Assembly: GCA_027021705.1 (NCBI GenBank) | Contig: JALUTT010000048.1 | Span: forward strand, 64,001 to 128,000 | Length of the DNA stretch: 64,000 nt | Source of the DNA: Anaerolineae bacterium | GTDB lineage: Bacteria > Chloroflexota > Anaerolineae > S140-20 | Direction of reading: 5' to 3' | Part shown: positions 1-27,576 of the stretch, in pieces | How positions within the stretch are numbered: position 1 is the stretch's first letter | Layout: each line of letters begins with the position of its first letter | Position numbers and translations under genes: made by a program | Notes under the pieces: model-generated | What the model saw: the letters and a program-made list of their open reading frames with translations, nothing else | Database searches by the model: none | Told to the model about the DNA's origin: nothing

Positions 1-1698
1 GGGTCCCAGCGGATGCGCGTCTTTAAGCTCGCCTTTCTGGCCCACCGCTTCTACAATTCGACCAATCCCGATGAGCGAGTGGCAGCTATCGCCGATATGG
101 GAGAAGAGATTGCCCGCTTCGACACCTACCTGGTGGGCCTGCGGAACGGCGATCCCGATCTGGGGCTTCGACCGGCGACCAACGCGGCGGTGATAGATGC
201 CCTGGAGCGAAGTGCCGAGGCCTGGCAGCGATACCGGGAGACCCTGATGGACTATCTGGCGGTCCAGGACCCCGACAAGATGTTTGAGCTCCTGGGGCGG
301 ATAGACAATCAGGCCCGCCCGTTAGTGACCCAGGTAGACGCCGTTGTGCAGGCCCTGGAGGTCCAGGTTCAGGCCGATGCCCATCATAGCCAGGTCTTGC
401 TGGGGATTGCCCTGGCGTTGGGCTTGCTGGTGATGGTCGGCGCTTCTCTGACCATCCGGATGATCGGCCGTGACCTGACCCAGTTGACTATGGCCGCTGA
501 GCAGATGGCCGGCGGTGACCTGAACGTGCGGGCGGCAATAGTTCACCAAGACGAGATCGGCATCATCGGGCAGACGTTGAACCGAATAGTTGCGCGCCTG
601 AAACAGACGCTGGAAGGGCTGGAACAACGGGTGGCCGAGCGTACTCGGGAACTGGAGCGCCACTCTGCCTATCTGGAGACCTCGGCCGAGGTGGGCCGTG
701 CAGCCACTTCGATCCTGGATATGGAGAGGCTGATCCACCAGGTGGTTGAGATGATCCGCGATCGCTTTGGCCTTTACGCCGTGGACCTCTTCCTGGTGGA
801 CCCGACGGGAGAGTGGGTGGAGGTGCAGGCCAGCGCCAGTGGGCCGGGCCAGGAGGTGTCGGCTCAGGAGAGACGGCTGCGGGTTGGGGAGGATTCGACG
901 GTGGGCTGGAGCATCGCCAATGCTGCGATGCGGGTCACGCCGGTGGAACGACCCGGTGATGTCGCCGAGGCGGTCCTGCCCCTTCACTTTCGGGACCAGG
1001 TATTGGGCGCGTTGAGGGTTCGGAGCCTGCAACCTGACCTCTTTGATCAGGACTTCACCACCGTGTTGCAGACGATGGCCGATCAGATCGCCATCGCCAT
1101 TAGCAATGCCCGTCTCTTCCAACAAGCTCAAGCGGCCCTGGAGGCGGAGCGTCGGGCCTACGGGGAGATCAGCCGGGAGGCGTGGGCTCAGGTGCTCCAG
1201 GCCCGACCCGATTGGGGATACCTATGCACTGCCCACGGCCTCTACCCGACCGATGGCCCGTGGTCTCCAGAGATGGTCCAGGCCAGGCAGACGGGCCAGA
1301 TCGTCCAGAACGATGGGGAAGTCGTAGCCGTGCCGGTAAAGATTCGAGGGCAGGTGGTGGGCGCGGTGCGGTTCCGCAAGCCGAAGCAAGCGGGAGGGTG
1401 GACGACGGACGAACTGACGCTGGTGAAGACGCTGACGGAGCAGTTGGGGGTGGCCCTGGAGAGTGCCCGCCTGTACCAGGATTCCCAGCGTCGGGCCCTC
1501 CGAGAGCGGCTGACGGGTGAGGTCACAGCCCGCATCCGCGAGACATTGGACCTGGAGATGATGCTGAAGACGGCCGCGCAAGAGGTTCGCCAGGCCCTGG
1601 GGCTGCCGGAGGTAGTGATCCGGCTGACGGGCCAACCGGGCAACGGTGCCGGAACCGGGGACGTGGCTTCTGGGGCCACGGAGGAGGTGGAGCCGTGA
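1..1698 (+). CDS. Membrane sensor: NarX/PilJ-like extracellular domain, TM, HAMP, GAF, truncated GAF, half-GAF tail; no output domain (5' partial)
   Basis: Frame is open from base 1 and reads GSQRMRVFKL, resembling the NarX/PilJ P-box (AG-S-x-R-M). TM segment VLLGIALALGLLVMVG, HAMP (DEIGIIGQTLNRIV) and GAF end motif QTMADQIAIAISNARL follow. Confidence 0.8.
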   Translation, partial: GSQRMRVFKLAFLAHRFYNSTNPDERVAAIADMGEEIARFDTYLVGLRNGDPDLGLRPATNAAVIDALERSAEAWQRYRETLMDYLAVQDPDKMFELLGRIDNQARPLVTQVDAVVQALEVQVQADAHHSQVLLGIALALGLLVMVGASLTIRMIGRDLTQLTMAAEQMAGGDLNVRAAIVHQDEIGIIGQTLNRIVARLKQTLEGLEQRVAERTRELERHSAYLETSAEVGRAATSILDMERLIHQVVEMIRDRFGLYAVDLFLVDPTGEWVEVQASASGPGQEVSAQERRLRVGEDSTVGWSIANAAMRVTPVERPGDVAEAVLPLHFRDQVLGALRVRSLQPDLFDQDFTTVLQTMADQIAIAISNARLFQQAQAALEAERRAYGEISREAWAQVLQARPDWGYLCTAHGLYPTDGPWSPEMVQARQTGQIVQNDGEVVAVPVKIRGQVVGAVRFRKPKQAGGWTTDELTLVKTLTEQLGVALESARLYQDSQRRALRERLTGEVTARIRETLDLEMMLKTAAQEVRQALGLPEVVIRLTGQPGNGAGTGDVASGATEEVEP

Positions 1699-3422
1699 GG
1701 GACCTCAACAAGCTTCAAGCCATATCCACAGAGGTACAGGCTCCTGATGAGGGAGAGCAGGGAGGAGGGCTTGGGAAGATGCCGCTCTTTGAAGAGGTGA
1801 CATCCTTTCCTCCCTTCCTGCTCATTGTGGTCTTCATCGTCCTGGTCTCCGAGGCGATCGTGAGCCTTCTGTTCGCCAGCCTGCCCGTGCAGGGAGTGCT
1901 TGCCCGGCTCGTCCTTCACACCTTGGTGCTGATCGGACTGATCAGTCCCGTTCTCTACCTACCGGTGGTCCGCCCGCTCGTCCGGCGGATGGCCGAGTAC
2001 AGGCAGATGGTGGAGAGGATGCAGCGGTTCGTTAATGCCGTTGAGCAGGCAGCCGAAGCCATCGTTATCACCAACCGCGAGGGGGTGATCGAGTACGTCA
2101 ATCCCGCCTTTGAGCGGGTCACGGGCTATCGCGCAGAAGAGGCGGTGGGGAAGACGCCGCGCATCCTGAAATCGGGCCAGCACCCGCCGGGGTTCTACGA
2201 GAAGCTCTGGGAGACCATCACCGCCGGCGAGGTCTTCCAGGCCGTCTTCGTGAACAGGCGGAAGGATGGGGAGCTATACTACGAGGACCGGATGATCGCC
2301 CCGATGAGGGATGCAAAGGGACAGATCACCCACTTCATCGCGACGGGCCGGAACATCACCCGGCGCAGGGAGTTGGAGGAGCGGCTGAACGCGGTCTACC
2401 GGCTGGGCCAGGAGCTGACGTTGCTCCACGACGAGGCGGCCATCATCTATCGAGCGCTGGAGGCTGCTGTCCAGGTGCTCCGGTGCGAGATCGCCGGCTA
2501 CGCCTCGGTGGACGAGACGACGAAGACGCTGACCTATCATTACCGCTTGATCCAGGGTCAGGTCGAGGCGGTCAGCTTCTCCCTGCCCCTGACCGCCAGG
2601 GAGGAGATCGGGGTGATCGCCGCCCAGAGCGGTCAGATCGTCAGGACCTCTGACGTGAGCTCCGACACCTCCTTCGCGCTCGTTCCGGAGGCGCTCTCCC
2701 ATCGTGCTGGGTTGTGTGTGCCGATGAAGGTAGGAGGACAGGTGATCGGTGTGTTGGGTGTCGCCAGATTTGAACCGGAGCCCTTTACGGCAGCCGACGA
2801 ACGGTTGCTACAGACCTTGGCCGACCAAGCTGCCGTGGCTCTGGAGAATGCCCGGCTTGTTGCCGAAGCCCAGGAGGCCCTGGAGGCCCTGCGCCGTGCT
2901 TACGGCGAACTGAGTCGGGAGGCCTGGGCCGGCTTGCTCCGCGTCCGGCCCGACCTAGGCTTCCGAAGCACGGAGCAGGGGGTTACCAGCGCGGAGGATG
3001 TGTGGCGACCAGAGATGGAAGAGGCCATCCGGGAGGGGAAGACGGTTCAGGCCAACGGTACCGGTGGGGATACCCGGCTCCCCCTCGCCATCCCCATCAA
3101 GGTACGAGGGCAGGTCGTGGGGGTGTTGGACACCTACAAGCCCAATGACGCAGGCGTGTGGACTCCGGAGGAGGTCACGCTGCTGGAGACGATCGCCGAG
3201 CAGTTGGGTGTGGCCCTGGAAAGCGCCCGGCTGTTCGAAGAGACCCGGCGTCGGGCCTGGCGGGAGCAACTCATCAGTCAGATCACCGCCCGCATCCGGG
3301 AAGCCAGCGATGTCGAGGGGGTGTTGCGGACGGCGGCCGAGGAGCTGGGCAGGGCCTTGAACGCTGCCCGTTCCCACGTCGCCCTCCAGGTGCCCGAAGA
3401 CTCGGAGTCCGCAGGTTCGTGA
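1695..3422 (+). CDS. 2-TM, PAS, GAF, truncated GAF, half-GAF tail sensor; no output domain
   Basis: GTGA overlap with the upstream stop. PAS IEYVNPAFERVTGY..PRILKSGQH..NRRKDG; GAF LCVPMKVGGQVIGVL..LADQAAVALENARL. Confidence 0.85.
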   Translation: MRDLNKLQAISTEVQAPDEGEQGGGLGKMPLFEEVTSFPPFLLIVVFIVLVSEAIVSLLFASLPVQGVLARLVLHTLVLIGLISPVLYLPVVRPLVRRMAEYRQMVERMQRFVNAVEQAAEAIVITNREGVIEYVNPAFERVTGYRAEEAVGKTPRILKSGQHPPGFYEKLWETITAGEVFQAVFVNRRKDGELYYEDRMIAPMRDAKGQITHFIATGRNITRRRELEERLNAVYRLGQELTLLHDEAAIIYRALEAAVQVLRCEIAGYASVDETTKTLTYHYRLIQGQVEAVSFSLPLTAREEIGVIAAQSGQIVRTSDVSSDTSFALVPEALSHRAGLCVPMKVGGQVIGVLGVARFEPEPFTAADERLLQTLADQAAVALENARLVAEAQEALEALRRAYGELSREAWAGLLRVRPDLGFRSTEQGVTSAEDVWRPEMEEAIREGKTVQANGTGGDTRLPLAIPIKVRGQVVGVLDTYKPNDAGVWTPEEVTLLETIAEQLGVALESARLFEETRRRAWREQLISQITARIREASDVEGVLRTAAEELGRALNAARSHVALQVPEDSESAGS

Positions 3423-3509
3423 TGCGGTTCTCCTGGGCTTGCCAGCGTGGCGATCCGGCGGGTGGGGAGATCGCGGATTGACCCGGAGCACCGGAAGAAG
3501 GTACAGGGT

Positions 3510-5243
3510 ATGACGATGCAAGAAGAGATCCAGGAGCTGCAGGTAGAACTGGCCGCATGGCGCGAACGATTGGTTCGCGGTCTGTTGCGCGCCAGCCTGG
3601 TGGTGGGGGCTCTCGCCCTGGTCGCCGGCCTGATCAACGCCGTCACGGCTCGGGCCGTTCTGCTGGTCGTCATCTACGTGGCGGCCTACCTGGCGATGCT
3701 GGTCATCACCTTTGCCTCCCGTCTGCCCTACCTCCTGCGGGCCGGCGTCTTCCTGTTCCTCCTCTACGGGTTGGGGCTGGTGGGCCTGCTGGAAAGCGGG
3801 CTGAGCGGCGATGGACGGGTCTTCCTGCTCACCTTCCCCGTCGTGGCGACAGCCCTCCTGGGCCAGCGGGCCGGCATAGTCAGCCTGGGGCTGAGCCTGG
3901 TGACCCTGATAGGGGTGGGATGGGGGATGACCACAGGACTCCTGGACATCTCTGTGGAACAGATGGCCAACTCCACCGATCCCACCGCTTGGTTCAGCGG
4001 CAGTGTGGTCTTCTTGCTCCTGGCCCTGGCGATGCTTATCCCCACCGCTCACCTCTTGCGGGGGCAGGTCTTTGCCGCCCAGTTTGCCCGGCAGAACCGG
4101 GCCCTTCAGGAGGCCCAGGCCGCCCTTGCCGAAGTCCACCGCCAGCAGGAGGAGGCCAACGAGCGGTTGCGCCAGGCGCTGGAGGAGAGCGCACAGCGGG
4201 CTGGTCAGCTTCAGGTCATCACCGAATTGAGCCACGCCATCGCTCAGATCCGGGACCTGGATCGCCTGCTGTCGGAGGTCACCCACCTCATCGCCGATCA
4301 CCTGGGCTTCTACCACGTCGGCATCTTCCTGCTGGACGAGTCCGGTCGTTACGCGGTGCTCCAGGCAGCCAACAGTGAGGGTGGACAGCGTATGCTGGCC
4401 CGGGGGCACAAGCTGGAAGTTGGCGTTCAGGGCATCGTCGGGTACGTTACGGGGACGGGGAGACCCCGCATCGCCCTGGACGTGGGGGCCGATGCTGTCC
4501 ACTTCGATAACCCCGATCTGCCGGAGACCCGTTCGGAGGTGGCCCTGCCCCTTCGGATCGGGGAAGAGGTGATCGGGGCGTTGGATGTGCAGAGCAAAGA
4601 GACGGCGGCCTTTACCCAGATGGACGTCGTCGTCCTGCAGATGCTGGCCGATCACGTAGCCATCGCCATTGAGAATGCCCGGCTTCTCCGGCGGGTTCAG
4701 GAGGCGCTGCAGGAGGCCCGGGAGGCCCAGCGGCGCTACGTGGAGCGGGAGTGGTCGCTCTACCTCCGGCGTAGGCCCCGCCTCGAGGCCGCCTATGTGC
4801 CTATGGCCGCCCCGTCAGAGCCACCGCCGCGCACCGCTATTGAAGAAGCCCTGCGTAAAGGGGAGATGGTAGCCCTCTCGGGTGACGGTCGCCCCGCCTT
4901 CCTGGCCGTGCCCATCAAGCTGCGGGGGCAGGTCATCGGGGTCATAGACCTGCAGACAGCCGAGGAGGGCCGTCCCTGGACCGAGGATGAGATCGCGCTG
5001 GTCCGGGCCATCAGTGATCAGATGGCCTTGGCCCTGGAGAACGTGCAGCTCTTTGAGCAGACGGTGCGCCGGGCCGAGCGGGAGCATCTGGTCACCCAGA
5101 TCAGTGGGAAGATCCGCGCCTCGACCAATCTGGAGGCGATTGTGCAGACGGCTGCTCAGGAGCTGGCGCGCGCCCTGGGGACATCGCGGGTCCTGGTCCG
5201 CCTGGGGGTGGAGGAGGATGGGAAGCGGGGCATTGAGGGGTGA
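3510..5243 (+). CDS. Multi-TM membrane sensor with GAF, truncated GAF and half-GAF tail
   Basis: About 6 hydrophobic helices, then GAF GFYHVGIFLLD..TRSEVALPL..IGALDVQS. Start uncertain (GTG 3447, ATG 3510 or 3516). Confidence 0.8.
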   Translation: MTMQEEIQELQVELAAWRERLVRGLLRASLVVGALALVAGLINAVTARAVLLVVIYVAAYLAMLVITFASRLPYLLRAGVFLFLLYGLGLVGLLESGLSGDGRVFLLTFPVVATALLGQRAGIVSLGLSLVTLIGVGWGMTTGLLDISVEQMANSTDPTAWFSGSVVFLLLALAMLIPTAHLLRGQVFAAQFARQNRALQEAQAALAEVHRQQEEANERLRQALEESAQRAGQLQVITELSHAIAQIRDLDRLLSEVTHLIADHLGFYHVGIFLLDESGRYAVLQAANSEGGQRMLARGHKLEVGVQGIVGYVTGTGRPRIALDVGADAVHFDNPDLPETRSEVALPLRIGEEVIGALDVQSKETAAFTQMDVVVLQMLADHVAIAIENARLLRRVQEALQEAREAQRRYVEREWSLYLRRRPRLEAAYVPMAAPSEPPPRTAIEEALRKGEMVALSGDGRPAFLAVPIKLRGQVIGVIDLQTAEEGRPWTEDEIALVRAISDQMALALENVQLFEQTVRRAEREHLVTQISGKIRASTNLEAIVQTAAQELARALGTSRVLVRLGVEEDGKRGIEG

Positions 5244-5285
5244 GGTGACGAGGGCCGAGGGATGGGGTGAGGGGGAGCCACCGGT

Positions 5286-5358
5286 CGTCAACGAATGCGG
5301 GGAATGGGCCACCGCCGGCATCGGGCCTGTTCGTTTATTCGTTGGACATTCGTTGACG
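5286..5358. repeat. ~73-bp intergenic hairpin element (ACGAAT/ATTCGT family)
   Basis: cgtcaacgaatg (5286-5297) is the reverse complement of cattcgttgacg (5347-5358). A related element lies at 61175-61251. Confidence 0.7.
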
Positions 5359-5384
5359 GTGTACTATAGGAAGGGGAGACAACG

Positions 5385-6659
5385 ATGTTCCGAAGTGCCC
5401 GAACGATGAGGTTGCTGGTCGTTCTGTTCCTGCTCCTGCCTTTCGTCAGCGCTTGCCGTTCGGAACCACCGCCGCCGGCCGAGGTAACGATCGGGGTGAT
5501 CTACCCCTTCAGCGGGAGTCTGGAGGCCACAGGGGCTGACATCCGCCATGGCATCGAACTGGCCGTTGAGATCATCAACGGGGAGTTCAAGCTGGAGATG
5601 CCCCTGGCCTGGACGGCGGGCCTCCCCAACTTGCGGGGGGCGAAGGTGAAGGTCATTTACGCCGACCACGCAGGCGATCCCGACCAAGGAGTCGAGGCAG
5701 CCCGGCGGTTGATCGAGGAGGAGAAGGTGGTGGCTCTGGTGGGGTGCTACAACAGTAGCGTGACCGCTCCCGTCAGTCAGGTGGCCGAGGCGGCCAGTGT
5801 GCCCTTTTTGAACCCCGACTCCACGTCGCCCACCCTGACCCAACGGGGGTTCCGCTGGTTCTTCCGCACCACCGCCGATGATGCTATCTTCGTGCGCAAC
5901 TTTTTCGACTTCCTGGCCGATCTGCAGCAGGAGCGGGGCATAGCCCTCGGTTCGGTAGCCATCGTCTACGAGAACACCCTCTTTGGCACCGGCGTCGGGC
6001 AGTTGGAGCGCCGGTACGCCCAGGAGGCCGGACTCAAGGTCGTGGCCGATGTCCCCTACTCGGCCAACGCGACCAGCGTGGAGGCCGAGGTCCAGCGGAT
6101 CATCGCTTCCGGTGCCTCCCTGGTGATGCAGAGCTCCTACGCCCAGGATGCGATCCTGTATATGCAGACCTACAAGGCGATGGGCTACCGTCCCCAGGCG
6201 CTCCTGGCGATGGATGCCGGCTTCATCAGCCCGGTCTTCATCGAGACGCTGGGGGACGATGCCAATTACATCCTCAGCCGGGAGGTTTGGGCTCCAGACC
6301 TGGGGGAGACCCGGCCCCTGATCCGTCAGGTCAACACGCTCTTCCGGGGGCGCTACGGGACCAATATGACGGGCAACTCGGCCCGCGCCTTCACGGGCCT
6401 CATCGTCCTGGCCGATGCCATCAACCGGGCCGGCTCGACAGAACCCGAGGCTATCCGCCAGGCCCTTCTGGAGACCGACATCCCGGCCGAGCAGTTGATC
6501 ATGCCCTGGAAGGGCGTCCGTTTCGATTCCGAGACCGGTCAGAACACCCTGGCCCAGGGCATCATCGTCCAGATTCAGGACCGGGCTTACTACACCGTTT
6601 GGCCCTGGGACCTGGCAACGCGGGAGTTGATCTGGCCGATGCCCGATTGGGAGGAGTGA
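5385..6659 (+). CDS. LivJ/LivK-like amino-acid-binding lipoprotein (no permease adjacent)
   Basis: Lipobox VSAC; TIGVIYPFSG; VALVGCYNSSVT; FFRTTADD. SD-like aggaagggg upstream. Confidence 0.85.
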   Translation: MFRSARTMRLLVVLFLLLPFVSACRSEPPPPAEVTIGVIYPFSGSLEATGADIRHGIELAVEIINGEFKLEMPLAWTAGLPNLRGAKVKVIYADHAGDPDQGVEAARRLIEEEKVVALVGCYNSSVTAPVSQVAEAASVPFLNPDSTSPTLTQRGFRWFFRTTADDAIFVRNFFDFLADLQQERGIALGSVAIVYENTLFGTGVGQLERRYAQEAGLKVVADVPYSANATSVEAEVQRIIASGASLVMQSSYAQDAILYMQTYKAMGYRPQALLAMDAGFISPVFIETLGDDANYILSREVWAPDLGETRPLIRQVNTLFRGRYGTNMTGNSARAFTGLIVLADAINRAGSTEPEAIRQALLETDIPAEQLIMPWKGVRFDSETGQNTLAQGIIVQIQDRAYYTVWPWDLATRELIWPMPDWEE

Positions 6660-6662
6660 GCG

Positions 6663-8933
6663 ATGGCTGAGCGACCCGCACGATCCCGCCGCCGGCGCAG
6701 TCTGGCACGGCGACTCGCCCAGGCCCTTGTCCTGACCACGGTGCTCCCGCTGCTGGTCGTGGGCGTGATGCTGGTCCTGGTCAGCCGTAATGTCCAGATC
6801 CAACACGTGATCGCCCTCCACCAGGAGATCGCCGAGGAGGCGGCTCTCACCATCTCGTCCTACTTGGACAACGCCGAGAACGTGCTAAGCGCCTTCGCCC
6901 ACACCCACGATCTCACGGCTCTGGACCTGCCCTCTCAGCAGTCTGCCCTGGAGGAGCTTCTGTTCAGCCAGCCGGATGTGTTTGAGGACCTGGCCCTGCT
7001 GGACCGCTCCGGTCGGGAGGTAGTGCGGGTTTCGCACTTCCACACCTTCTTGCCCGATGAGTTGGAGGACCGGGCCGAGACCGAGGCCTTTCAGCAGGCC
7101 ATCAAGGGCGAGGTTTACACGGCTGGGGAAGCCTACATCTCGCCCTACAGCTCCCTGCCGGTGATGACGATGGCGGTTCCCGTCCTTTCCGAGGCAGGTG
7201 AGCCTGTTGGCGTCCTGATCGCCGAGGTCAGCCTCAAGACGATGTGGGACACCGTGGCTCGTGTCCAGGCGGGGCTGGCCGGCTATGCCTATATTGTGGA
7301 CCGGTCGGGACACATTGTGGGGCACACGCGGGTGAGCCGCTACTTCCGGCTTCAAGAACGGGACCTGACCTTCATCCCGCTGGTCCGGGATCTGGTGGAG
7401 GGTCGGGAGCCGGTATCTCACCTCTACAAGGGGCTGGAGGGCGAGCGGGTCATCGGGGTTCTGGCACCCATTGAGGGTACCAATTGGGCGGTCGTCGTCG
7501 AGGTCCCCACCCGTGAGGCTTTCGCCAGCCTGCGGCGTATGGTCTACCTGTTCATCGGCACCCTGGTGGTAGCAGCGTTGATGGCCGGTGGGTTGGGGCT
7601 TCTGCTGCCCCGGCGCATCATCCGCCCACTCCGCCTGCTGCAGGAGGGCGCTGCGGCCATTGGGGCCGGACGGCTGGAGCACGTCATCCAAGTGCGGACC
7701 AACGACGAGCTAGAGGACCTGGCCGAGGCCTTCAACACGATGGCGGCCCGGCTGCAGGAGAGTCGGGCCCAACTGGAGCGCTGGGGCCAGGAGTTGGAAC
7801 GGCAGGTAGAGGAGCGGACGGCCGAACTGGCCGAGGCCTCGGAGCGCCTCCACCGCCGCGCCGACCAGCTTCAGGCCATCGCCGAGGTCGGGCGTGCCAT
7901 CACCCTGGTCAGTGACCTGGACCAGATGCTCACCCAGATCACCCAACGCATCAGCGAGCGCTTTGGCTTCTACCACGTGGGAATTTTCCTGCTAGACGAG
8001 GTGGGAGAGTACGCCATCTTGCGGGCGGCGAATAGCGAGGGGGGGCAACGGATGCTGGCCCGGGGGCACCGGCTGAAGGTGGGCGAGAAGGGCATCGTGG
8101 GCTACGTTACCAGCACTGGCGAGCCTCGTATCGCCCTCGATGTCGGTGAGGATGCCGTCTGGTTCGACAACCCAGACCTGCCCCTCACCCGCTCCGAGTT
8201 GGCCCTGCCCCTAAGGGTGGGTGGCGAGATCATTGGGGCCTTGGACGTGCAGAGCACCGAGGAGGCCGCGTTCACCGAGGAAGATGTCGCCGTGCTCAGC
8301 ATGCTGGCCGACCAGGTGGCCGTCGCCATCCAGAATGCCCGCCTGCTCGCCCGCACTCAGCAGGCCCTGGCCGAGGTGGAGGAGACCCATCGCCAGTACC
8401 TGCAGCGGGAGTGGCGGGAGATCACAGCCCAGCGCGGACCGTTGGTCTACGAGTACACCCGCGCCGGGACGCCTCCTGTGAGGGAAACCCTCCTTCCCGA
8501 GATGAAGCGGGCGATGGAGGAGGGCGAGGTCGTTGCCGTGCCCATCTCCGATGGGGATGGTGGGGATGGGGCGACCGCGGGATCGGCCTTGGCCGTCCCC
8601 ATCAAACTGCGAGGGCAGGTCATCGGTGTGATAGACCTGCAGGAGATTGGAGATGGTCGGCAGTGGACGGAGGAGGAGATCGCCCTCGTGCAAGCCATTA
8701 GCGATCAGATGGCCCTGGCAGCGGAAAACGTCCGCCTGTTGGAGGAGACGGAACGCCGTGCTGTGTGGGAGCATCAGGTCCAGGCGATCACCTCCAAGAT
8801 CCGCCGTTCGCCCGATCTGGCGACCATTCTCCAGACGGCAGTGGAAGAGTTGGGGCGGGTCCTGAGAGCCGACCGAGCCCTCGTTCGTCTGAGAGTAGAG
8901 ACTCCAGAGACGGACCAAGAGCTGGAGGAGTGA
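6663..8933 (+). CDS. TM, dCache, TM, HAMP, GAF, truncated GAF, half-GAF tail sensor
   Basis: Cache-like motifs YISPYSSLPVMTMAVPV and GYAYIVDRSGHIVGH; HAMP DELEDLAEAFNTM; conserved GAF AANSEGGQRMLARGH. Confidence 0.85.
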   Translation: MAERPARSRRRRSLARRLAQALVLTTVLPLLVVGVMLVLVSRNVQIQHVIALHQEIAEEAALTISSYLDNAENVLSAFAHTHDLTALDLPSQQSALEELLFSQPDVFEDLALLDRSGREVVRVSHFHTFLPDELEDRAETEAFQQAIKGEVYTAGEAYISPYSSLPVMTMAVPVLSEAGEPVGVLIAEVSLKTMWDTVARVQAGLAGYAYIVDRSGHIVGHTRVSRYFRLQERDLTFIPLVRDLVEGREPVSHLYKGLEGERVIGVLAPIEGTNWAVVVEVPTREAFASLRRMVYLFIGTLVVAALMAGGLGLLLPRRIIRPLRLLQEGAAAIGAGRLEHVIQVRTNDELEDLAEAFNTMAARLQESRAQLERWGQELERQVEERTAELAEASERLHRRADQLQAIAEVGRAITLVSDLDQMLTQITQRISERFGFYHVGIFLLDEVGEYAILRAANSEGGQRMLARGHRLKVGEKGIVGYVTSTGEPRIALDVGEDAVWFDNPDLPLTRSELALPLRVGGEIIGALDVQSTEEAAFTEEDVAVLSMLADQVAVAIQNARLLARTQQALAEVEETHRQYLQREWREITAQRGPLVYEYTRAGTPPVRETLLPEMKRAMEEGEVVAVPISDGDGGDGATAGSALAVPIKLRGQVIGVIDLQEIGDGRQWTEEEIALVQAISDQMALAAENVRLLEETERRAVWEHQVQAITSKIRRSPDLATILQTAVEELGRVLRADRALVRLRVETPETDQELEE

Positions 8934-9890
8934 GTGGTGTCTTCCTCGCTTACCTGGGAAGCTTTTGCTCGGATGCCTTTGCCGGAAGTTGCGACGCTGG
9001 TCGGTCAGAGGCTGCGCAGCCTTCTGGTCGTCGCCGATGGCACGCAGCGCTGGTTCGTCTGCGAGAAGAAGTCGGGTAATGTCTTGTCCCAGACCTACTG
9101 GAGCGAGTACATGGAGGTGGTCAGCCGCCAGTATGCTGCCTTGCTGCACCTCCTTTTCACCCACGGCGTTCCTACCATCTTCGAGCCGCTGGTGATGCCC
9201 GTGGGGCGGAGCGAGGAGGAACTGAAGCGAGGGCTGGCCAACCTACCGCGCATTGTGGCCGACAAACCGTTCCGAGAGCTTTACGAGGAACTGGACATCC
9301 GGGTTCGCTTCTACGGCCCTTGGATGTCACTTCTGGAGGAGGTGGGACGACCGGACTTATGGGAGGTCTTGAACCGTCTGACCGAGGAAACGGCTCATCA
9401 CTGGCGTCACCGGCTCTTCTGGGGGATCTACATACCGGGGATCTCTCCCCAAGAAGAGATGGTCCGCTTCACGGTGGAGCGGGCTCGATCTGGGGCGGGG
9501 TCTGTGAGCCGAGAACAGTTGGTGGTTGCCTATTACGGTGAGCCTGTTGAACCTGTGGAAGTCGCGATCCTGTTGGCGGGACAGCCCCGGGCTGCCAGCT
9601 ATCTTCCCCCCTTTCTGGGGGATGATGCCGACTTTTACTTCACCGTCAACTCCCCGCTGGGGATGGACGCGCTGCAGTTGCGGGCCATCCTTTACGACAA
9701 GCTGTTCGCCCGTCGAGAGGCGGCCCGAGAGTACACGCGCCTCTCCCCCCAGGGGTTGGCGGAGATCCGTGAACTTTACGAACAGAATAGAGGGCACACG
9801 CTGGGCATAGGCCGCTGGTCGGAAACGGGTCAGTTCTGGTACCCGCTCCCTCAGGTGAACCTCCCTCCCACGCTCATGCCGGGGACGTAG
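8934..9890 (+). CDS. Rv3378c-like diterpenyl transferase/diterpene synthase (cis-prenyltransferase fold)
   Basis: Collinear motifs match Rv3378c as recalled: DGTQRWF (DGTRRWF), LFTHGVPTIF (LFEHGIETVI), VRFYG, HRLFWG, YYGEPV (YYGEYV), FYFTV (LYFTV), LRAILYD (LRRILYD). Confidence 0.85.
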   Translation: MVSSSLTWEAFARMPLPEVATLVGQRLRSLLVVADGTQRWFVCEKKSGNVLSQTYWSEYMEVVSRQYAALLHLLFTHGVPTIFEPLVMPVGRSEEELKRGLANLPRIVADKPFRELYEELDIRVRFYGPWMSLLEEVGRPDLWEVLNRLTEETAHHWRHRLFWGIYIPGISPQEEMVRFTVERARSGAGSVSREQLVVAYYGEPVEPVEVAILLAGQPRAASYLPPFLGDDADFYFTVNSPLGMDALQLRAILYDKLFARREAAREYTRLSPQGLAEIRELYEQNRGHTLGIGRWSETGQFWYPLPQVNLPPTLMPGT

Positions 9891-9960
9891 GAGGTAGGTG
9901 GCGGGGCGCAAGGGGCTAGTTGCAAGTTGCAAGGAGTAGGTGGCAAGTCGGGGGCGGGAG
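9891..9960 (+). repeat. Degenerate heptamer tandem repeat
   Basis: agttgca-agttgca-aggagta-ggtggca-agtcggg run between the two terpene genes. Confidence 0.45.
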
Positions 9961-10013
9961 CCCCATGAGTTGTCGTTTTGCCGGGAGTTGTACAACAAAA
10001 GGAGGCGCGGAAA

Positions 10014-11543: not shown

Positions 11544-11561
11544 GCATAGGAGAACCAGAAT

Positions 11562-14500: not shown

Positions 14501-16373
14501 CCAGGTGGGCGGGCGTCGCATCGGTGTGGTCTTCGCCAATGGAGAGCAGCCCGGTCAGTTTGGCGAGCACGAGCAGAACCTGCTCACCTTCCTGGCCAGC
14601 CAGGCGGCCATCGCCTTGCAAAATGCCCGTCTCTTCGAGGAAGTCCAGACCCGCGCCCGCCACGAGCACGCCTTGCGCGAGATCACCGCGGTCATCAACA
14701 CCAGCGAGAGTTTGGTGGAGGAACTCCCCGTCATCGCCGGACACCTCCGGCAGTTGGTGCCCGTGGACACCCTCGCCCTGACCATCTACGTACCGGGGGA
14801 GTCCGAGTACACCCTCTTCGCCGTGGAGGTGAGCGGGGAAAGGACTCCCTTTGCCCAGAGGGGTGCCCGACTCCCGGTAGAGGGCACCGGCCCTGGGTGG
14901 GTCCTCACCCACGGCGAGCCGTGGATAGACGACGATCTCCGCCAGCAGCTTTCCTTTGTCGAGGATGAGCACGTCCTTGCCCAGGGATTGCGCTCCCGGG
15001 CGATCCTTCCCCTCCGGGTCGGCGAACGGGTCATCGGCACCCTCAACCTTGCCAGCACCCAGCCCGGGGTGTTTACCGAAACCGATCTTCCTCCCCTGCG
15101 GCTGATCGCCGGTCAGATGGCCCTGGCCCTGGAGCGGGTCCGCCTCTTCGAGGAGACTCAGCAGCGGGCCCGAGATCTGGACAAGCTCTACCAGGCGACG
15201 CGGGTCATCAGCACTGAACTGGACTTGGAGCCGCTGGCGGAGAAGCTGGCAGAAGAGGCTCGGAATCTGGTGGAGGCCCATTACAGCGGCATCCTGATCT
15301 TCCATCCCAATCCGGACCAGCCGGTCTATTTCAAGACGGCCGGCGTGGACCTCGATCGCTTCCAGTTGTCGGGTCGGCCCGAGGGCAAAGGGGTGTTGGC
15401 CGCCATCCTCGAGGGGGAGGCGGTCCGGCTGGACGACATCTCGAAGCACCCCCGTTCCGTCGGTCTGCCGCCGGAGCACTTCCCCCTCAAGCGGCTGTTG
15501 GGCTTGCCTATCGTCTACCACGGTCAGGTGCGGGGCATCTTGTTGGCAGGACGTGATGCCAATGGTGCTCCTTTCACCGAGGCGGACTTCTCCTTGCTCC
15601 AGGCTCTGGCAGCTTCGGCGGCCGTCGCCGTGGAGAATGCTCGGCTCTTCCTCAAGACCCAGGAGGCGTTGGCGGAGACGGAGGTTCTCTACCGGGCCAG
15701 CCGGGCCATCGCTGTGGCCCAGACGCCCGAGGACGTGTTGCGGGCCTTCACCGATCACATCGTCACACCGGAGATTGGCCGTTGCGTCCTGGCCCTGATA
15801 GATCCTGGCAGCCCGCCGGACCAACGGGAAGTAGAGATCGTCGCTGCGTGGGAGCCGGGGGTGGAACGACCGGCTGTGGTTGGAAACCGCTGGAACGCTT
15901 CTCAGATCCCCTTAATAGACCGGATCGGCCAGGATCCTCTGGTCATCTCCGACGTGGAGACCGCCTCAGAGATGGACGAGGTCTCCCGCCACATCTTCCT
16001 AGACATCCTGGGGATTAGGGCGTTCATCGCCATCCCCATGCTGGTCGGTGAGCGGCTGCTGGGCTGGCTGCTGGTCGAATCCCTGGAGGGGCCTTACGAG
16101 TTCAGCGAGCGGGAGAGGCGGCTCTACGAGGCCCTGGCCGGACAGGCTGCCGTCGCTCTGGAGCGCCAGCGTCTCTTCGAAGAGGCTCAGAGGCGGGCTC
16201 GCCGCGAGCGGCTGATCCGGGAGATCACCACCAAGGTGCGTGCCGCCACCGATGTGGACACGATCCTGCAGACCGCCCTTCAGGAGATCAGCCAGGCGTT
16301 AGGGACCACCCACGCGGCGATCCGCTTGGGAGTCCAAAGCCCAGAGTTTGGAAATGGAGGCTCGGAGAGGTAG
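11562..16373 (+). CDS. Large membrane sensor: ~6 TM plus 8 GAF units (one truncated) and half-GAF tail; no output domain
   Basis: Hydrophobic N-terminus, eight repeats ending in ENARLF-like motifs, C-terminus ITTKVRAATDVDTILQTALQEISQALGTTHAAIRL. Confidence 0.88.
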   Translation: MRERLVEALTVQPDDLLRIRPLLEVMLKGLIVATAAGTVVFVGAAVIGQRGFWVLSGLNLLMLIVMIGIGRLNQRGHTNAAIHTLLAVITLYVTVASPPGFLVAGPELAVYAVPITAAGLLLTPAAAGFWAVITTIAALARMIVVTLFLDVVVSPIALTLGVIVLYLLALSTWLFARSLQQANRNLRRRIGQIQTGAEISRVVTAALEPGLIQWPAVQLIQTGFGYYHVGFYVLDPEGRWAVLTEAAGEAADRMKQEEHRLPLDGSTVVAAAFAQRARQMLVLGEEGPYSPNGRPLQPNDRFLPQTRAELALPLQVGERLLGVLDVHSTQPLPFPDEEIEALEGIVGQVAVALENAHLFEDLHQRHQELRELHQQTERRARYLEATAELARAVSSLLDLQALLDRAVNLISERFGFYHAGIFLVDEAGEWAVLQAANSEGGQRMLARGHKLRVGEQGIVGWVTHAGEPRIALDVGEDAVHFDNPDLPNTRSEMALPLRVGDRVIGALDIQSTREAAFSEEDVAVLQTLADQIAIAIENARLFQETQRALEEVQTLHRYYLAQAWEQFTRQRRDLSAEYRRLGVPPLERAWSPEMEIALAQERPVVLTDLEAELLGGDGQEGNRDDGTDGRSALPARSVLAVPIKLRGEVIGVLDLQATEESRRWTDEEVAMVAAVADQMALALENARLLEAERDQRQVSEALREAAVALSSTLEFDDLVQRILEQISRVVPGDASNLMLIEGDEVRVVGRRGYEHFQFVDLLRERRVPRDTLNTLRKMAETGRPVVIPDTASDPDWRLLPGSEWIRSYVGAPIQVRGEIIGLLNVDSATPGFFTQEHADRLAAFAAQAGIALQNARLFEETRRHAREVRQLYQLGMALSATLDLEEALQTVADGARELLEASSAAVYYWDEGTQRYTYRFSLGETHLDAEGLFQEPRPGGMTETIHRTGEPVLVEDVRLDPRVASHVVEAGVRSFVGVPIQVGGRRIGVVFANGEQPGQFGEHEQNLLTFLASQAAIALQNARLFEEVQTRARHEHALREITAVINTSESLVEELPVIAGHLRQLVPVDTLALTIYVPGESEYTLFAVEVSGERTPFAQRGARLPVEGTGPGWVLTHGEPWIDDDLRQQLSFVEDEHVLAQGLRSRAILPLRVGERVIGTLNLASTQPGVFTETDLPPLRLIAGQMALALERVRLFEETQQRARDLDKLYQATRVISTELDLEPLAEKLAEEARNLVEAHYSGILIFHPNPDQPVYFKTAGVDLDRFQLSGRPEGKGVLAAILEGEAVRLDDISKHPRSVGLPPEHFPLKRLLGLPIVYHGQVRGILLAGRDANGAPFTEADFSLLQALAASAAVAVENARLFLKTQEALAETEVLYRASRAIAVAQTPEDVLRAFTDHIVTPEIGRCVLALIDPGSPPDQREVEIVAAWEPGVERPAVVGNRWNASQIPLIDRIGQDPLVISDVETASEMDEVSRHIFLDILGIRAFIAIPMLVGERLLGWLLVESLEGPYEFSERERRLYEALAGQAAVALERQRLFEEAQRRARRERLIREITTKVRAATDVDTILQTALQEISQALGTTHAAIRLGVQSPEFGNGGSER

Positions 16374-16454
16374 TCCCGGAGTCCTCGTCCTGGTGTGGTG
16401 AGCCGAGGACAAGAGTAGGAAGTTCAGAGTTCTGAGGTACAGGTGAGGGGAAAA

Positions 16455-19400
16455 ATGGCCGACTCAACCCACTCAGCCCACCCACAAGACCTCCTCGACC
16501 GGCTCCTGTCCATCGTCGCTGGGATAGACGAGGGGGAGCAGCGTGAGGCCCTGCAGCAGCCGTTGGAGGCGCTGCGGAAGGCGCTTGCCGTCTCCTCGGA
16601 TCGGAGCCGTCGCCTCTACGAGGCCAGTCGGGCGATCAGCCTGGCCGCCGATATGGCTGAGGTGGGACGGGCTCTGATGGACTTCATCGCGACCTGTGAC
16701 GTGGATGTGGGCCGGCTCTTTCTCTTCCGGGCGGATCCGTCTGGTGAGCCGGTTGAGATCGAGATGCGCGAGGGATGGAAGCGGAGCGGTGAGCCCTCTC
16801 AGGTTCCCTACGGCACCCGTTTCCCGCTGGCCGATTACCCTCTGCGTGAGGCTATGCAGCCTGACCAGGTCTTCATCTGCTCCGATGTGGGGACGGATCC
16901 CCGGTTGAATGAGACCATCCGGGCGATGATGCTCGCCTCCGAACTGCACTCCTTCATCATCGTCCCGATGACGGTGGAGAGGCGGTGGTTGGGTGCCATT
17001 CTCGTAGGACGGGAGGTCCCCTCCACGTATGATGAAGGGTTGGTCTACGCCCTCTGGACGCTGGCCGGACAGGCTGCGGCCACGCTGGAGAACCGCCAGC
17101 TCCTGGCCGACTTCCAAGGAACAGCCGAGCAGATGGTCCTGCTCAACCAAATCCTCCAGACGGCTACGACGACCCTAGACCTCCGGGAGGCCCTCGATTC
17201 CATTGCCCGACAGACGGCCCTGGCGCTGAACAGGATGTGCGGCATCTTTCTTCTCGAGGAAGATGGCGAGCACCTGCGGGTGGGCTGCTTGTGGGGACCC
17301 GATGGCCATACCCACACGTCTGAGGAGGCCCTCGTCTTCCCTCTCTCAGAGAATCCCGGTATGGAGGCAGCCGTTCGGGAGCAGAAGACCCAGGTCCTTG
17401 ACCAGGTTCAGACCCGTGCCCGGGGAACAGCCCGCCACCTGGCCCAACTCTCCCGGGCGGAGACGGCCGTCTACGCCCCCTTGCTGACCCGAGAGCGTGT
17501 GGTGGGGGTGCTGGAGGTCTCCGCCCCCGTCGGCCATCCCCCCTTCACGCCGGAGCAGATCGGCACGGTCTCCACCATTGCCCGCCAGATGGGTATCGTG
17601 GTGCAGAATGCTCGACTCTTCCAGGAAACCCAGGCCGCTCTGGAGGAGACAGACCTGCTCCTGGAGACCAGCCGGGCCCTGGCCCTCGCCCTGACCCCCC
17701 AGGAGGTGGCCGATCTCCTGGCAGAGCGCTTGATGGCCACAGGCGTTGACCGTTGTAGCGTGGTTCTCTGCGATACCTACGGAGAGGATGGGCTCCCTCA
17801 GTGGGCGGAGGTGATGGCCATCGGCGACGTGGACCCGGAGAGGCGAAAGCTGGGCCTGCACTACCGCTATCCCATCGAAACCTACCCTACGATACAGAAG
17901 TTCCTCCGTGCTCCAGAAGCCTTCGTGGTGACCGATGTGCGCACCGATCCCCGCCTCACCGAGGAGGAGCGAATCTATATGGAAAATATCGGGGGGGTGG
18001 CTTTCATCGCCGTCCCGATGGTGCGCCGGGGACAGGTCCTGGGCTACATCTTCGCCGAACACAGCCATCCCTATACCTTCAGTCAGCGGGAGCTTTCCCT
18101 GTACCAGGCGATGGCCGATCAGGCAGCCGTGACGCTGGCCAACATGCGTCTCTTCGAGCGGGTTCAGCAAGGGTGGCGCGAGACCGAGGTCCTCTATCAG
18201 GTTGGCCGCTCCTTGGTCGCTGCCTCTTCCTTGGAGGAACTGCTGGAGTGTGCGGCCCAACCGGCCATCGAGGCAGGGGCGTCGGCCGCCAGCCTCTACC
18301 TCTTCGACCCGAATGAGGCGGAGCAACCGGAGTGGGGCATCCTGGCCGCCCACTGGCAGCGCGAGGGTGATCCTCCCTTCCCCGTGGGTACTCGGCTCTA
18401 CTTGGCCGATTTCCCCTTCACCCAGCTCTTCCTGGCGGATCCCCAGACCCCTTACCTGATCGGGGATATGGAGGCGGCCGAGCAGGTGGATGAGACTACC
18501 CGGGATGTGGCCCTGCAACTGGGGGTGCGAGCGCTGGTTGTCATCCCCTTGGTGACCCGGGAGCGTCGGATTGGTATCCTGGCCATTCCCTGGGATGAGC
18601 CCCACCAATTCAGTGAGGAAGAGGAGCGGCTCTATCGGGCGCTGGGACCGTTGGCAGCGCCGGTCACGGAGAGCTTGCGCCTACTGGAGGACACACGGCG
18701 TCGGGCACTCCAGTTCCAGACCGTGACGGAGGTTGCCCAGGCGGCCAGTACCATCCTGAACCTGGATGAGTTGCTCTCCCAGTCGGTGGAGTTGATCAGG
18801 GAGCGCTTTGACCTCTACTATGCCGGTATCTTCCTGGTGGATGAATACGGGCAGTGGGCGGTGCTGCGGGCGGGCACCGGCGAGGCCGGCCGGGCGCAGA
18901 TCGAGGCCGGTCACCGGCTGGAGGTGGGGGGCAACTCGATGATCGGCTGGTGCACGGCCCACGGAAAGCCCCGGGTAGCCCTAGACGTGGGGAAGGAGGC
19001 CGTGCGCTTTGAGAACCCCTACCTGCCCGATACCCGCTCGGAGATGGCCCTGCCCCTCATCAGCCGGGGGCAGGTGATCGGTGCGATGACCATCCAGTCC
19101 ACCCAGGTCGCTGCCTTCACCGACGAGGATGTCACAATCCTCCAGGCTCTGGCCGACCAGTTGGCCGCGGCCATTCAGAATGCCCGTCTCTTCGAGCAGA
19201 CCCAGCAGGCCCTGCAGGAGGTCAGCCGGGTTCACCAGCGTTACATCCGTGAGGCCTGGGAGGAGTACACAGCCCATCGTCAGCGTCCGACAGGCTACTT
19301 CCTGGGCCCCGACGGCATCACGGCTGCCGACGTCTGGCGACCGGAGATGGCCTTGGCGGTGGAGCGGGAGGACCTGCTGATCCTCTCCGAGGCCGACGAC

Positions 19401-22400
19401 GAAGTAGTTGGCGGGAAGAACGGAGATGAACGCCCCAAGGCAGCCCTGGCTGTGCCCATTAAGCTGCGCGATCAGGTGATCGGGGCGCTGGACTTCTTCG
19501 AGCCCGATGAGGCCCGGGAATGGGATGAGGATGACATCGCCATCGTAGAGGCGGTGGTGGATCAGGTTGCCCAGGCTCTGGAGAGCGCCCGCCTCTTCGA
19601 GAAAACCCAGACCCAGGCCAGCCGGCTGGCCCTCCTGAACGAGATCACAGCCCGCCTGAGCACGGCCCTGGATCGGGATGAACTCTTCCGTATCTTGAGT
19701 CAGGAACTGGGCCGCATCCTTCCTTTCCACCAGCTCCACATCGCCCTCTACGACCCTCAGCGGGATTCCGAGCACTGCCGGCTGATCCCTCTAGGGAAGG
19801 AAGCCTTCCACGCGGTGCAGACCTTCCCCGTCGAGGATAGCCTGATGGGAGAGGTGTTGCAGAGCGGTCGTCCTCTGTTGTTGAAAGACCTCGCCCTCTC
19901 GTCGGAAGAGATGGGGTCGAACCACCAAGACCGCCGCTATCTCCTCCAGACGGGCGTTCGCTCGGCGATCTTCGTCCCCCTGGGAACCCATGGGCGCCAA
20001 CTAGGGGTGCTGAGCGTGGGCCATGCAGAGGCCGGCTTCTACACCCAGGATGACCTGGCCCTCTTCCAGCAGGTTGCTGCTCAGGTGGCCGTTGCCCACG
20101 AGAACGCCCGCCTCTTCCACGAGACGCGGCGTCGGGCCCGTCAGTTGCAGGACCTCTACGATGCCGGGCTTGCCCTCTCCTCCATCGCCTCGCTGGAGGA
20201 GGTGATGGAGCGGGTTGCTCAAGCGGCTCAGAAGCTGACCCAGGCCAGCCTGACCACGGTCTTCGTCTACGATGAGGACCTGGGTCGCTATCGTCGGGCC
20301 GCCGCGGCCGACGCGCCGGAGCGGCTGGCCTCCTCGCCGGTCATCTACCCCCGTCGGGGAGGCTTCACCGACAAGATCGCCCGCAGCGGTCGCCCCCTCG
20401 TCGTCCCCGATGTCGAGGCCGATCCCGACGTGAACCCGGGTGCTCTGGAGTCGGGGATGCACTCCCTGGTGGGAATTCCGATGCAGATGATGGGACAGGA
20501 GGCCATCGGGGTCATCTTCTGTGCCCATACCGAGAAGCATTACTTCACCGAGGAGCACGTGGAGACCCTCTCCTTCCTGGCCGTCCAGGCGGCGATCGCG
20601 CTGCAGAACGCCCGATCCTTCGCCCAAGTGGAACGCCGGCGGCTGCAACTGGAGACCGCGGCCGAGGTCGCCCGGGTGACCACCGCCGTTCTGGACCTGG
20701 ACGAGCTGCTGGAGCGGACGATCAGCCTGCTCCAAGAGCGGTTTGGCCTCTACTATGCGGGCATCTTCCTGCTGGACGAGACGGGGTCGTGGGCGGTGTT
20801 GCGGGCCGGAACCGGAGAGGCTGGTCGTCGGATGGTGGAGCGTGGACACCGGCTGCAGGTAGGCGGCAATTCGATGATCGGCTGGTGCACGGCCCATGGA
20901 GAGCCCCGCGTGGCCCTGGACGTGAGCAAGGAACGGGTGCGCTTCATCAACCCGCTGTTGCCCGACACCCGCTCGGAGATGGCCCTGCCCCTCATCAGCC
21001 GGGGGCGGGTGATCGGCGCGATGACCATCCAGTCCGATCAGACCGAGGCCTTCTCCCGGGCCGACGTCGCCACCATCCAACTGATGGCCGACCAGTTGGC
21101 CAACGCCATCGAGAACGTCCGGCTCTTCCAGGAGACCCAGACCAGCCTGGTGGAGACCGAGGCCCTCTATCGGGCCAGCCGGCGGGTGGGGGAGGCCCAG
21201 TCCATCGAAAGCGTCCTAGAAGGTGCGGCAGAGTTGGCCGAGGTTCTGATCCCGGAGGCCGGCAGCATCTCCATCAGCCTGATTACCCGCTGGGACGAGG
21301 CCGGAGAGCCGACGGCTGCCGACATTCACGTCCTCTCCCTGGGCACGGGCCAGCGGATCCCGCTGCCGACCCTCACCGATTTTCCCATCACCGATCGGGA
21401 GACGGCGAGGATGGTCCTGGGCGAGCCCGAAGCAGTCGTCATCTACGCCGATGCCGACGATCCCACCTGTTCTATGCCCGAGGAGGTGCGGGAGGTGATG
21501 CACAACAGCGGCACCCGGGGAATGGTCACGCTGGGCCTGCTCGCCCGAGGCCGCTCCTTGGGATTCCTCTCCTTCAGCAGTTCGGCGCCACTCACCGAGT
21601 TCCCGGAACGTCACGTCCGGCGTCTCCGCACCCTGGCCGACCAGATCGCGGTGACCCTGGACAACCTGCAGCTCTTCCGGCAGACTACGGAGGCGCTGGA
21701 AGAGACCCAGACCTACTATGACATCAGCCGGCAACTGCTGGAGGCCCAGACGGTGGAAGAGGTGCTGGCGGCTGCGCTGGCCTTTCTGCAGGAGCCGGAT
21801 GTGGACAGTGCCAGCATCTTCCTGGTGGGTGGACCGCCGGAGGCCCTATGGCTGGAGCGGGTTGCGGTCAAGGGCATTCGGGAGAGGACCGAAGCCCCGC
21901 TGGGCGATCGGATCCCGATGGACCTGTATGGACTAGATCGCCTGCTCGCTCCCGGTCGTACGGTTGTGGTCGAGGATGTGGCCCGCGATACCCGGATTAC
22001 GGAGCCGCTGCGGGAGATGTTGACAGAGTTGGGAAAGCGGGCCGTCGTCTTCGTGCCGATGCAGACGGGGCAGCAGCTGGTAGGGACTTTGCTGGTTGCC
22101 CAAAACTATCCCTACCGCTTCTCCAAACGTCAGATCCGGCTCTACGAGGTTGTGGCGGCCCAGACATCGGTAGCCTTGGAGAACCGGCGCCTGCTGGAGG
22201 AGACCCGACGGCGGGCCGTCCAGTTGGAGGCAGCGGCCAAGGTGGGGCGTTCGGCCACCTCCATCCTGGAGCGCGAGCAACTGCTGCCGGCCGTCGTCGA
22301 GTTGATCCGCGACCACTTCGGCTACTACCACGCTCAGATCTTCCTGATAGACGAGACGGGGCGGTGGGCGGAACTCCAGGCCAGCACCGGTGAGATCGGC

Positions 22401-24244: not shown

Positions 24245-24300
24245 CCCCGCCGAGGTGGGAAAGGATAGCATCGTTGTGCTTCCACCCCGCCGAGGTGGGA
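24245..24300 (+). repeat. 16-bp direct repeat x2 (ccccgccgaggtggga)
   Basis: Exact copies at 24245-24260 and 24285-24300 in the kinase/PLP-enzyme intergenic region. Confidence 0.8.
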
Positions 24301-24362
24301 TCTACCGGCAACTGGACCTTATCCCCCAAAAGTGCGCGCGGAAGGAAGGAGTCAAAGAAGCC

Positions 24363-27573: not shown

Positions 27574-27576
27574 ACG

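Follow-up and report, generated by a model that had tools for sequence, protein, structure and literature searches.

Tandem GAF modules, as found in PDE2A, PDE5, PDE6, the cyanobacterial CyaB2 and the phytochrome Cph2, consist of domains of the same fold connected by a continuous helix that runs from α5 of one GAF into α1 of the next, and every GAF is complete in one chain. We have analyzed a stretch of 64,000 nucleotides (the window) from the genome of an Anaerolineae bacterium of the phylum Chloroflexota (contig JALUTT010000048.1, here C48:64001-128000) that contains part of an array of sensor genes ending in the gene of a hybrid histidine kinase. The array proteins have the same fold and the same continuous helix, but here the chain stops after β1, leaving a C-terminal α1-α2-β1 piece, the first third of a GAF (the tail), and the partner is a short GAF without α1-α2-β1 (the socket, found with what we call the head profile). 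Structure models and the covariation of both pieces point to an arrangement in which the tail of each protein probably fills the socket of the next gene's product, chaining the sensors onto the kinase. No description of a GAF domain split between signalling proteins was found in the literature, as far as the opening parts of the abstracts tell. The parts of the array (GAF, HAMP, PAS, Cache and kinase domains) are ordinary.

Three other described systems resemble the array in part. In chaperone-usher pili (Pap and Fim pilins) the incomplete fold of each subunit is completed by the terminal extension of its neighbour, giving a polar chain with special end members. By analogy, the array would be alike to this donor-strand exchange in working principle, but it does not belong to the family. 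Pilins have an Ig-like fold and are located in the periplasm or at the cell surface, while the array has the GAF fold and is placed in the cytoplasm. The piece that would be donated here is made of two helices and one strand at the C-terminus, and its presumed purpose is signalling instead of the building of a fibre. Neither the Ig-like pilin fold nor the chaperone and usher genes that define donor-strand complementation are present, and a Pfam search of the array did not detect any family of pilins, chaperones or ushers. A further similar case is open-ended (runaway) 3D domain swapping, with an element exchanged between chains and a hinge unable to close on its own chain. The classical form involves identical chains for which a closed monomer exists, whereas in the array the partners would be products of different genes with residues that match, and a closed form does not seem possible. 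Finally, chemoreceptor arrays with one CheA share with this array that many receptors, some of them with PilJ, dCache and HAMP domains, appear to feed one kinase, and the ParA/MinD-like ATPase gene of the cluster can be listed as a further likeness. This gene and that of a small Cache-HAMP-GAF histidine kinase are located just before the array (C48:47212-50783), and small kinases of similar type precede the arrays in the clusters G001 and G018. Unlike in chemoreceptors, no methyl-accepting chemotaxis protein (MCP) signalling domain, CheW or CheA was found in the array by Pfam, and the coupling would go through the split GAF.

The first 24 kb of the window are a run of co-directional, closely spaced or overlapping genes of the + strand, among them five sensor genes (S1 to S5) and the kinase gene (Table 1). 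All six proteins (6/6) have Pfam GAF matches above the curated cut-off (PF01590, PF13185 or PF13492), and S1 to S4 have two such stretches each, the second of them being the short GAF. Each of the six contains one divergent short GAF, characterized by the motifs PEM and AVPIKLRGQVIG and by a conserved head helix that includes a Trp. Furthermore, S1 to S5 each end in a conserved stretch of ~48 residues, RRAxRE...ITxKIR...DL..IL.TA..EL...L....VRL, and the stop codon is found 8-20 residues after the tail. Using 8 full GAFs of the window, we built a GAF profile of 162 positions. The matches of the six short GAFs are confined to its end, from position 92-110 to 161-162, and the tails match positions 6-39 only and weakly (independent E-values of 0.01 to 3), so that neither piece is a complete single-chain GAF including α1, α2 and β1. 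A profile made for the tails separates true tails (at least 40 bits) from ordinary GAF N-termini (31 bits at most). Beyond GAF itself, NCBIfam and Pfam contain no named family for the tail/socket module. The profile searches confirm three statements that the initial annotation had made from the sequence, namely that S1 to S5 end in a tail corresponding to the start of a GAF (the coordinates agree within ~40 nt), that six short GAFs lack exactly this part, and that the kinase has a socket and no tail.

No enzymatic or DNA-binding output domain was found in S1 to S5 by Pfam. The kinase is a protein of 2599 residues with twelve GAF-type domains, and the HisKA (residues 2103-2170), HATPase_c (2217-2325) and two Response_reg domains detected by Pfam identify it as a hybrid histidine kinase. 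GAF domains 2-8 of S5 resemble GAF domains 5-11 of the kinase in the same order (blastp bits), and from its sequence S5 has the appearance of a duplicated kinase core that is truncated behind β1 of the following GAF. A pairing of the five GAFs that follow the S5 socket with the five that precede the kinase socket was rejected on the basis of this correspondence.

Actually, the array is larger than the part contained in the window. Ten tail-bearing sensors followed by the hybrid kinase, all co-directional, were found at contig positions 50789-88239. The five sensors originally described in the window stand, but five more tail-bearing sensors lie upstream of them. The first, U920, lacks a short GAF and has a divergent tail besides a full GAF, and four sensors of the usual kind lie between it and S1, so the array starts with a tail-only sensor and ends with a socket-only hybrid kinase. 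The tail comes directly after the socket in 8 of the 10 sensors. The tail of S5 follows a full GAF and is five domains away from the socket. A shifted-register reading, in which each domain after a short GAF is read one piece later within one chain, fits S5 but was discarded. It cannot account for the kinase, for proteins that combine 2-3 heads with a single tail, or for those with a tail only. A census of the whole genome in six-frame translation (22,547 open reading frames, ORFs, of at least 100 amino acids) gave at least 179 GAF domain matches in 73 ORFs. The head profile had 10 matches of at least 15 bits and the tail profile also 10, of which nine score 60-74 bits and the tenth 19 bits, and all of them, heads and tails, are on C48 within 50789-88239.

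Similar proteins are found in other genomes, and arrays were present in 14 of the 121 genomes sampled across the phylum. A single search restricted to proteins of 415-1323 residues retrieved 495 relatives at E≤1e-20. They come from assemblies of Anaerolineae and Chloroflexi and are named only "GAF domain-containing protein" or "PAS domain S-box-containing protein". Among the 115 new relatives listed, 98 have head and tail, 9 only the tail and 8 only the head. In a set of 166 proteins (150 representatives and 16 local ones), strong tails (at least 35 bits) were found in 66, located 3-50 residues from the C-terminus with the single exception of two internal copies in P0141. None of the six tail-bearing relatives tested has an output domain, and 9 of the 10 head-only relatives tested are hybrid kinases built like that of the window. 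The relatives also include forms in which both pieces are joined in the normal order. In P0141 a tail, a 7-residue linker and the body follow each other and are matched as one whole domain by the GAF profile (positions 20-157), and in P0186 and four relatives about 25 residues separate the tail from the body. Because natural relatives carry both pieces joined in this order, tail and socket can be considered complementary parts of one GAF. An AlphaFold2 model of the normal-order form of P0186 (residues 583-788), from an alignment of only 6 rows, was all helix with a mean predicted local distance difference test (pLDDT) of 48.9, too poor to be of use.

The same division is seen in the structure models. 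The S4 module was modelled with AlphaFold2 from a 30-row alignment, with a pLDDT of 88.1 and a predicted template modelling score of 0.70. Residues 20-133 of this model align to solved GAFs only from about residue 40-50 of the latter onward. The best fold match was 2xss_A (Z 10.1, root mean square deviation 2.6, 83 residues aligned), 3e0y_A gave Z 8.6 and 2.5 over 104 residues, and Foldseek found only weak similarity (best E 5e-4, to Cph2 4bwi, with a TM score of 0.49 or less). In the model, the S4 socket has the antiparallel sheet backed by helices that is characteristic of the GAF fold. We also modelled the kinase socket (residues 920-1078) together with the S5 tail as two chains. The interaction prediction score from aligned errors (ipSAE) was 0.73, 0.76 and 0.76, versus 0.00 for the best of 3 controls. 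Of 157 solved complexes 116 attain the mark used for this score, as do 2 of 215 mismatched pairs; these counts apply only roughly here, since the alignments were our own. The runs share at least 95% of the contacts and the pLDDT of the partner is 84 or more. Tail residues 44-47 are predicted to contact socket residues 33-35 (β2) and 96-100 (β5), that is, the slot of β1 in the GAF sheet, and tail residues 25-29, of the second helix, residues 123-130 of α5. Furthermore, the pLDDT of the kinase socket was 80-82 with the tail versus 52-55 with unrelated partners. The model indicates that the pieces fit, which does not imply binding in itself, and its success may reflect the likeness to solved GAF domains. 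The two-chain prediction that the initial annotation had recommended for tail and kinase socket is thus passed by the S5 tail. The identification of the tail as the missing α1-α2-β1 is supported by the profile positions, the ranges of the fold alignments, the joined relatives and this model.

The connection between both pieces within one protein bears on whether a tail could complete the socket of its own chain. Such a circular permutation in cis, given as the alternative in the initial annotation, would agree with the tail coming directly after the socket in most of the array sensors and with the presence of all the GAF elements in permuted order. The junction between α5 and the first tail helix contains no Gly, no Pro and no linker that would let the last piece fold back. 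In the S4 model a single helix of 45 residues (106-150) spans it, followed by the second tail helix, and the tail strand lies outside any sheet. Residues 127 and 130 of α5 are contacted by tail residue 25 in the two-chain model, and residues 123-130 by tail residue 28, which places α2' antiparallel and α1' parallel to α5, with the start of α1' at ~24 Å (our estimate) from the end of α5. Since there is no linker, the chain could not fill its own socket unless the conserved helix unfolds. In addition, S5, U920 and many relatives have their tails after complete GAFs, and the covariation of tails with their own sockets is at background level (see below). Completion in cis is therefore disfavoured and we consider it extremely improbable. 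By the same junction geometry, a reciprocal swap in a parallel dimer would be ruled out in the models.

Evidence on the partner of each tail came from covariation. We took the 25 contact pairs with the least error in the two-chain model and scored them in a six-letter alphabet for four pairing schemes, with within-genome permutations as reference. In a first set of 9 clusters, tails paired with the next gene's socket gave z 9.4 (68 pairs, reached by 0/500 permutations). The other schemes gave z 1.0 for the own socket (63 pairs, 79/500), 1.3 for the previous gene's socket (55 pairs, 51/500) and 0.65 for the next-but-one (63 pairs, 123/500). In 6 held-out clusters the next-gene value was 6.7 (37 pairs, 0/500) and the others were -0.8 (own, 36 pairs), -1.1 (previous, 30 pairs) and -1.4 (next-but-one, 35 pairs). 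The strongest three of all 8990 column pairs (kinase socket 101 with tail 40, 98 with 46 and 100 with 44) are inside the modelled interface, and the last two belong to the contact list itself; z is above 3 in 5 of the 25 contacts versus 2% of all pairs. The residues involved are chemically sensible, Arg/Lys against Glu, Gln/Glu against Arg and Gly against Phe/Tyr. At socket 100 and tail 44 we found R-E 15 times, K-E 6, Q-R 8 and E-R 4, and at socket 98 and tail 46 G-F 9 times and R-E 6. The next-gene signal persists when the data are halved (z 7.0 in one part and 3.5 in the other) and when any one genome is omitted (z 6.0-10.3). The own-socket pairs are ~70 residues apart in one gene and would be expected to share the most ancestry; the absence of a signal from them speaks against phylogeny as the only cause. 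A direct-coupling analysis of 140 C-terminal modules (effective number 116) gave as top pairs only alignment artefacts in gappy columns. From the covariation, the tail of protein i would contact the socket of protein i+1.

These data also bear on two other possible partners. If the tail of one copy filled the socket of another copy of the same sensor, the weak signal of own-type pairs with a 20-letter alphabet (z 2.3, 4/300 permutations, next to 5.8 for the next gene) would be accounted for, and sensors with HAMP domains are expected to be dimers. With the six-letter alphabet, own pairs do not rise above background in either data set; a parallel dimer would set both sockets level, beyond the reach of a straight tail according to the models, and the tail-only and socket-only end members would be left unexplained. 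We regard this swap between identical copies as very improbable. A hub, in which every tail competes for the socket or sockets of the kinase while those of the sensors stay empty or have another use, is quite improbable. The kinase socket does accept a canonical tail in the two-chain model and some kinases have two or three sockets, but the covariation is specific for the next gene at all array positions, beyond the last pair, and most clusters have as many tails as sockets.

Actually, short GAFs and tails are equally frequent in clusters G000 (10:10), G018 (5:5), G142 (7:7), G133 (5:5), G073 (12:12), G049, G097 and G085 (11:11 each), G115 (5:5) and G036 (5:5, where a contig end cuts the last ORF). 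In family f29 the short GAFs were counted by proxy, as GAF-profile matches on the strand of the array covering only positions ≥85. The counts are 9:8 in G001, with the extra head in a truncated ORF, 8:9 in G012, where one further head is visible by eye only, and 20:19 in G005, which has two tail-only sensors and a kinase with two sockets; the incomplete contig of G032 made it not countable. The truncated ORF of G001 (G001:C52:49973-52099, 709 amino acids) stops within the head helix of its short GAF and could be a broken gene or an assembly frameshift. Every mapped cluster has a tail-only protein at or near its start and ends in the socket-only kinase, which occupies this place in 9/9 clusters of the first set. 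The trans plug-and-socket chain that had been proposed in the initial annotation is supported on these computational grounds: tails completing sockets in trans by the two-chain model and the covariation, the latter answering the co-evolution check it had suggested, and sensors docked in a chain on the kinase by the next-gene specificity and the terminal position of the socket-only kinase.

Several observations weigh against such a chain. The counts of G045 are unbalanced, with 14 short GAFs versus 11 tails in the stretch examined (its kinase has three sockets, and 2-4 more tail matches are on other contigs). In some kinases (G005, G012b, G045 and G032) two or three short GAFs in tandem directly precede HisKA, and such stacked sockets would need several donors. 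These kinases are coded at L002:4133-5434 (G005), G012:C91:14750-16645, G045:C528:43666-47538 and G032:C330:12757-16791, with no tail-like piece between the sockets. The clusters share ancestry, so the pattern of first and last genes may have been inherited once. Similarly, 4 of the 6 held-out clusters share a family with clusters of the first set, and the detection missed divergent sockets, mostly of f29, so that the 68 and 37 pairs used are not all. The S4 socket was modelled confidently by AlphaFold2 (blocks 83-97) although the tail strand is unpaired, so it may be stable as a mini-domain. Finally, 9 of the 10 sensors look membrane-anchored at similar distances from their sockets, and the straight junction helix sets the acceptor one domain below the donor, which together make a rigid chain perpendicular to the membrane impossible.

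Part of this would be explained if the pieces never join, the short GAF being a stable mini-domain and the tail a helical hairpin that ends the rod, for example for dimerisation or capping. The confident S4 socket and the tandem sockets without a tail between them go in this direction, and also the tails that follow full GAFs (15 of 66 tail proteins have no head). Nevertheless, this leaves unexplained the next-gene covariation at the modelled contacts, the joined natural forms, the equal counts and the drop of socket confidence without the tail in the two-chain runs, and it is in our view unlikely.

The preferred reading, completion of each socket by the tail of the preceding gene's product, can be described as follows. 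A middle sensor would consist of an input domain, a full GAF, a socket and a tail. Helix α5 of the socket would run unbroken into the first tail helix, pointing the tail away from its own socket, which it could not fill. The tail strand would insert between β2 and β5 of the next protein's socket, with the second tail helix packed on α5. The result would be a polar head-to-tail assembly in which the tail-only sensor of the first gene only donates and the kinase of the last gene only accepts, and inputs as diverse as PilJ-like, PAS, MASE11, dCache and membrane modules would be physically coupled to one kinase. The complex may form in cells with all the links at once, in which case the rods would probably run along the membrane and not perpendicular to it. 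The signal could pass along the continuous α5-α1' helix into the rebuilt GAF and then through the kinase rod to HisKA. A more specific version, that gene order is assembly order and the sensor dimers form a polar filament along the membrane, with a tail-only start, the kinase at the end and a residue code for each link (tail 44 and 46 with socket 100 and 98), is put forward only tentatively and is somewhat less likely to be right than wrong.

Table 1 Features of the split-GAF array in the window (positions are those of the window)
Feature	Position	Strand	Content and support
Sensor S1 gene	1-1698 (begins 198 nt 5' of the window)	+	631 aa; PilJ-like N-terminus, HAMP, full GAF, short GAF, tail; Pfam and reconstructed full ORF
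S1 short GAF (socket)	1126-1491	+	Head profile 70 bits; head helix with invariant Trp, β2, PEM helix, β3-β5, α5
S1 tail (α1-α2-β1 of a GAF, then stop codon)	1492-1635	+	Tail profile 66 bits; 20 residues from C-terminus
Sensor S2 gene	1695-3422	+	Transmembrane region, PAS, GAF, short GAF, tail; Pfam
S2 socket	2868-3251	+	Head profile 68 bits
S2 tail	3252-3395	+	Tail profile 74 bits
Sensor S3 gene	3447-5243	+	MASE11, GAF, short GAF, tail; Pfam
S3 socket	4695-5069	+	Head profile 52 bits
S3 tail	5070-5216	+	Tail profile 74 bits
Sensor S4 gene	6663-8933	+	dCache, HAMP, GAF, short GAF, tail; Pfam
S4 socket	8355-8756	+	Head and GAF profiles; socket used for AlphaFold2 model
S4 tail	8757-8900	+	Tail profile; AlphaFold2 model
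Sensor S5 gene	11562-16373	+	Membrane N-terminus, two full GAFs, short GAF, five full GAFs, tail; Pfam and GAF profile
S5 socket (internal, full GAF after it)	13194-13637	+	Head profile 63 bits
S5 tail (after full GAF)	16194-16337	+	Tail profile; partner chain of two-chain model
Soluble hybrid histidine kinase gene	16443-24242	+	5 full GAFs, short GAF, 6 full GAFs, HisKA, HATPase_c, two receivers, no tail; Pfam and profiles
Kinase socket	19200-19610	+	GAF profile; acceptor chain of two-chain model

Other genes are found within and next to the array, all of them on the + strand. Just 5' of the dCache sensor S4 there is a gene for a Peripla_BP_6 periplasmic binding protein (5385-6659), the product of which is a possible ligand-delivery partner. 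Two genes lie inside the array between S4 and S5. The first (8934-9890) codes for 318 amino acids with no Pfam or NCBIfam match, and the product of the second (9978-11543) is terpene or squalene-hopene cyclase-like (Pfam). The 10-12 kb stretch of the window has a G+C content of 0.54 versus about 0.65 around it. Directly 3' of the kinase gene (24255-26027), a pyridoxal phosphate-dependent enzyme domain (PALP) is fused to a receiver domain, and this protein is a possible response regulator with enzyme output for the array system. Further 3' (26221-28818) there are genes for a DNA methylase-like protein and a BsobI-like restriction endonuclease that look unrelated to the array.

Many bacterial sensors have no recognisable output. 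If the split-GAF chain is true, a large class of such proteins from Anaerolineae and related Chloroflexota joins a kinase by domain sharing, which would be a new way of wiring signalling proteins. The order of the subunits would then be predictable from gene order, and the tails and sockets would offer protein engineering a natural set of orthogonal split-domain connectors whose specificity follows a readable code. If the filament is also true, the array would be a cytoplasmic signalling counterpart of the donor-strand exchange of pili, in which one kinase sums a dozen inputs in series.

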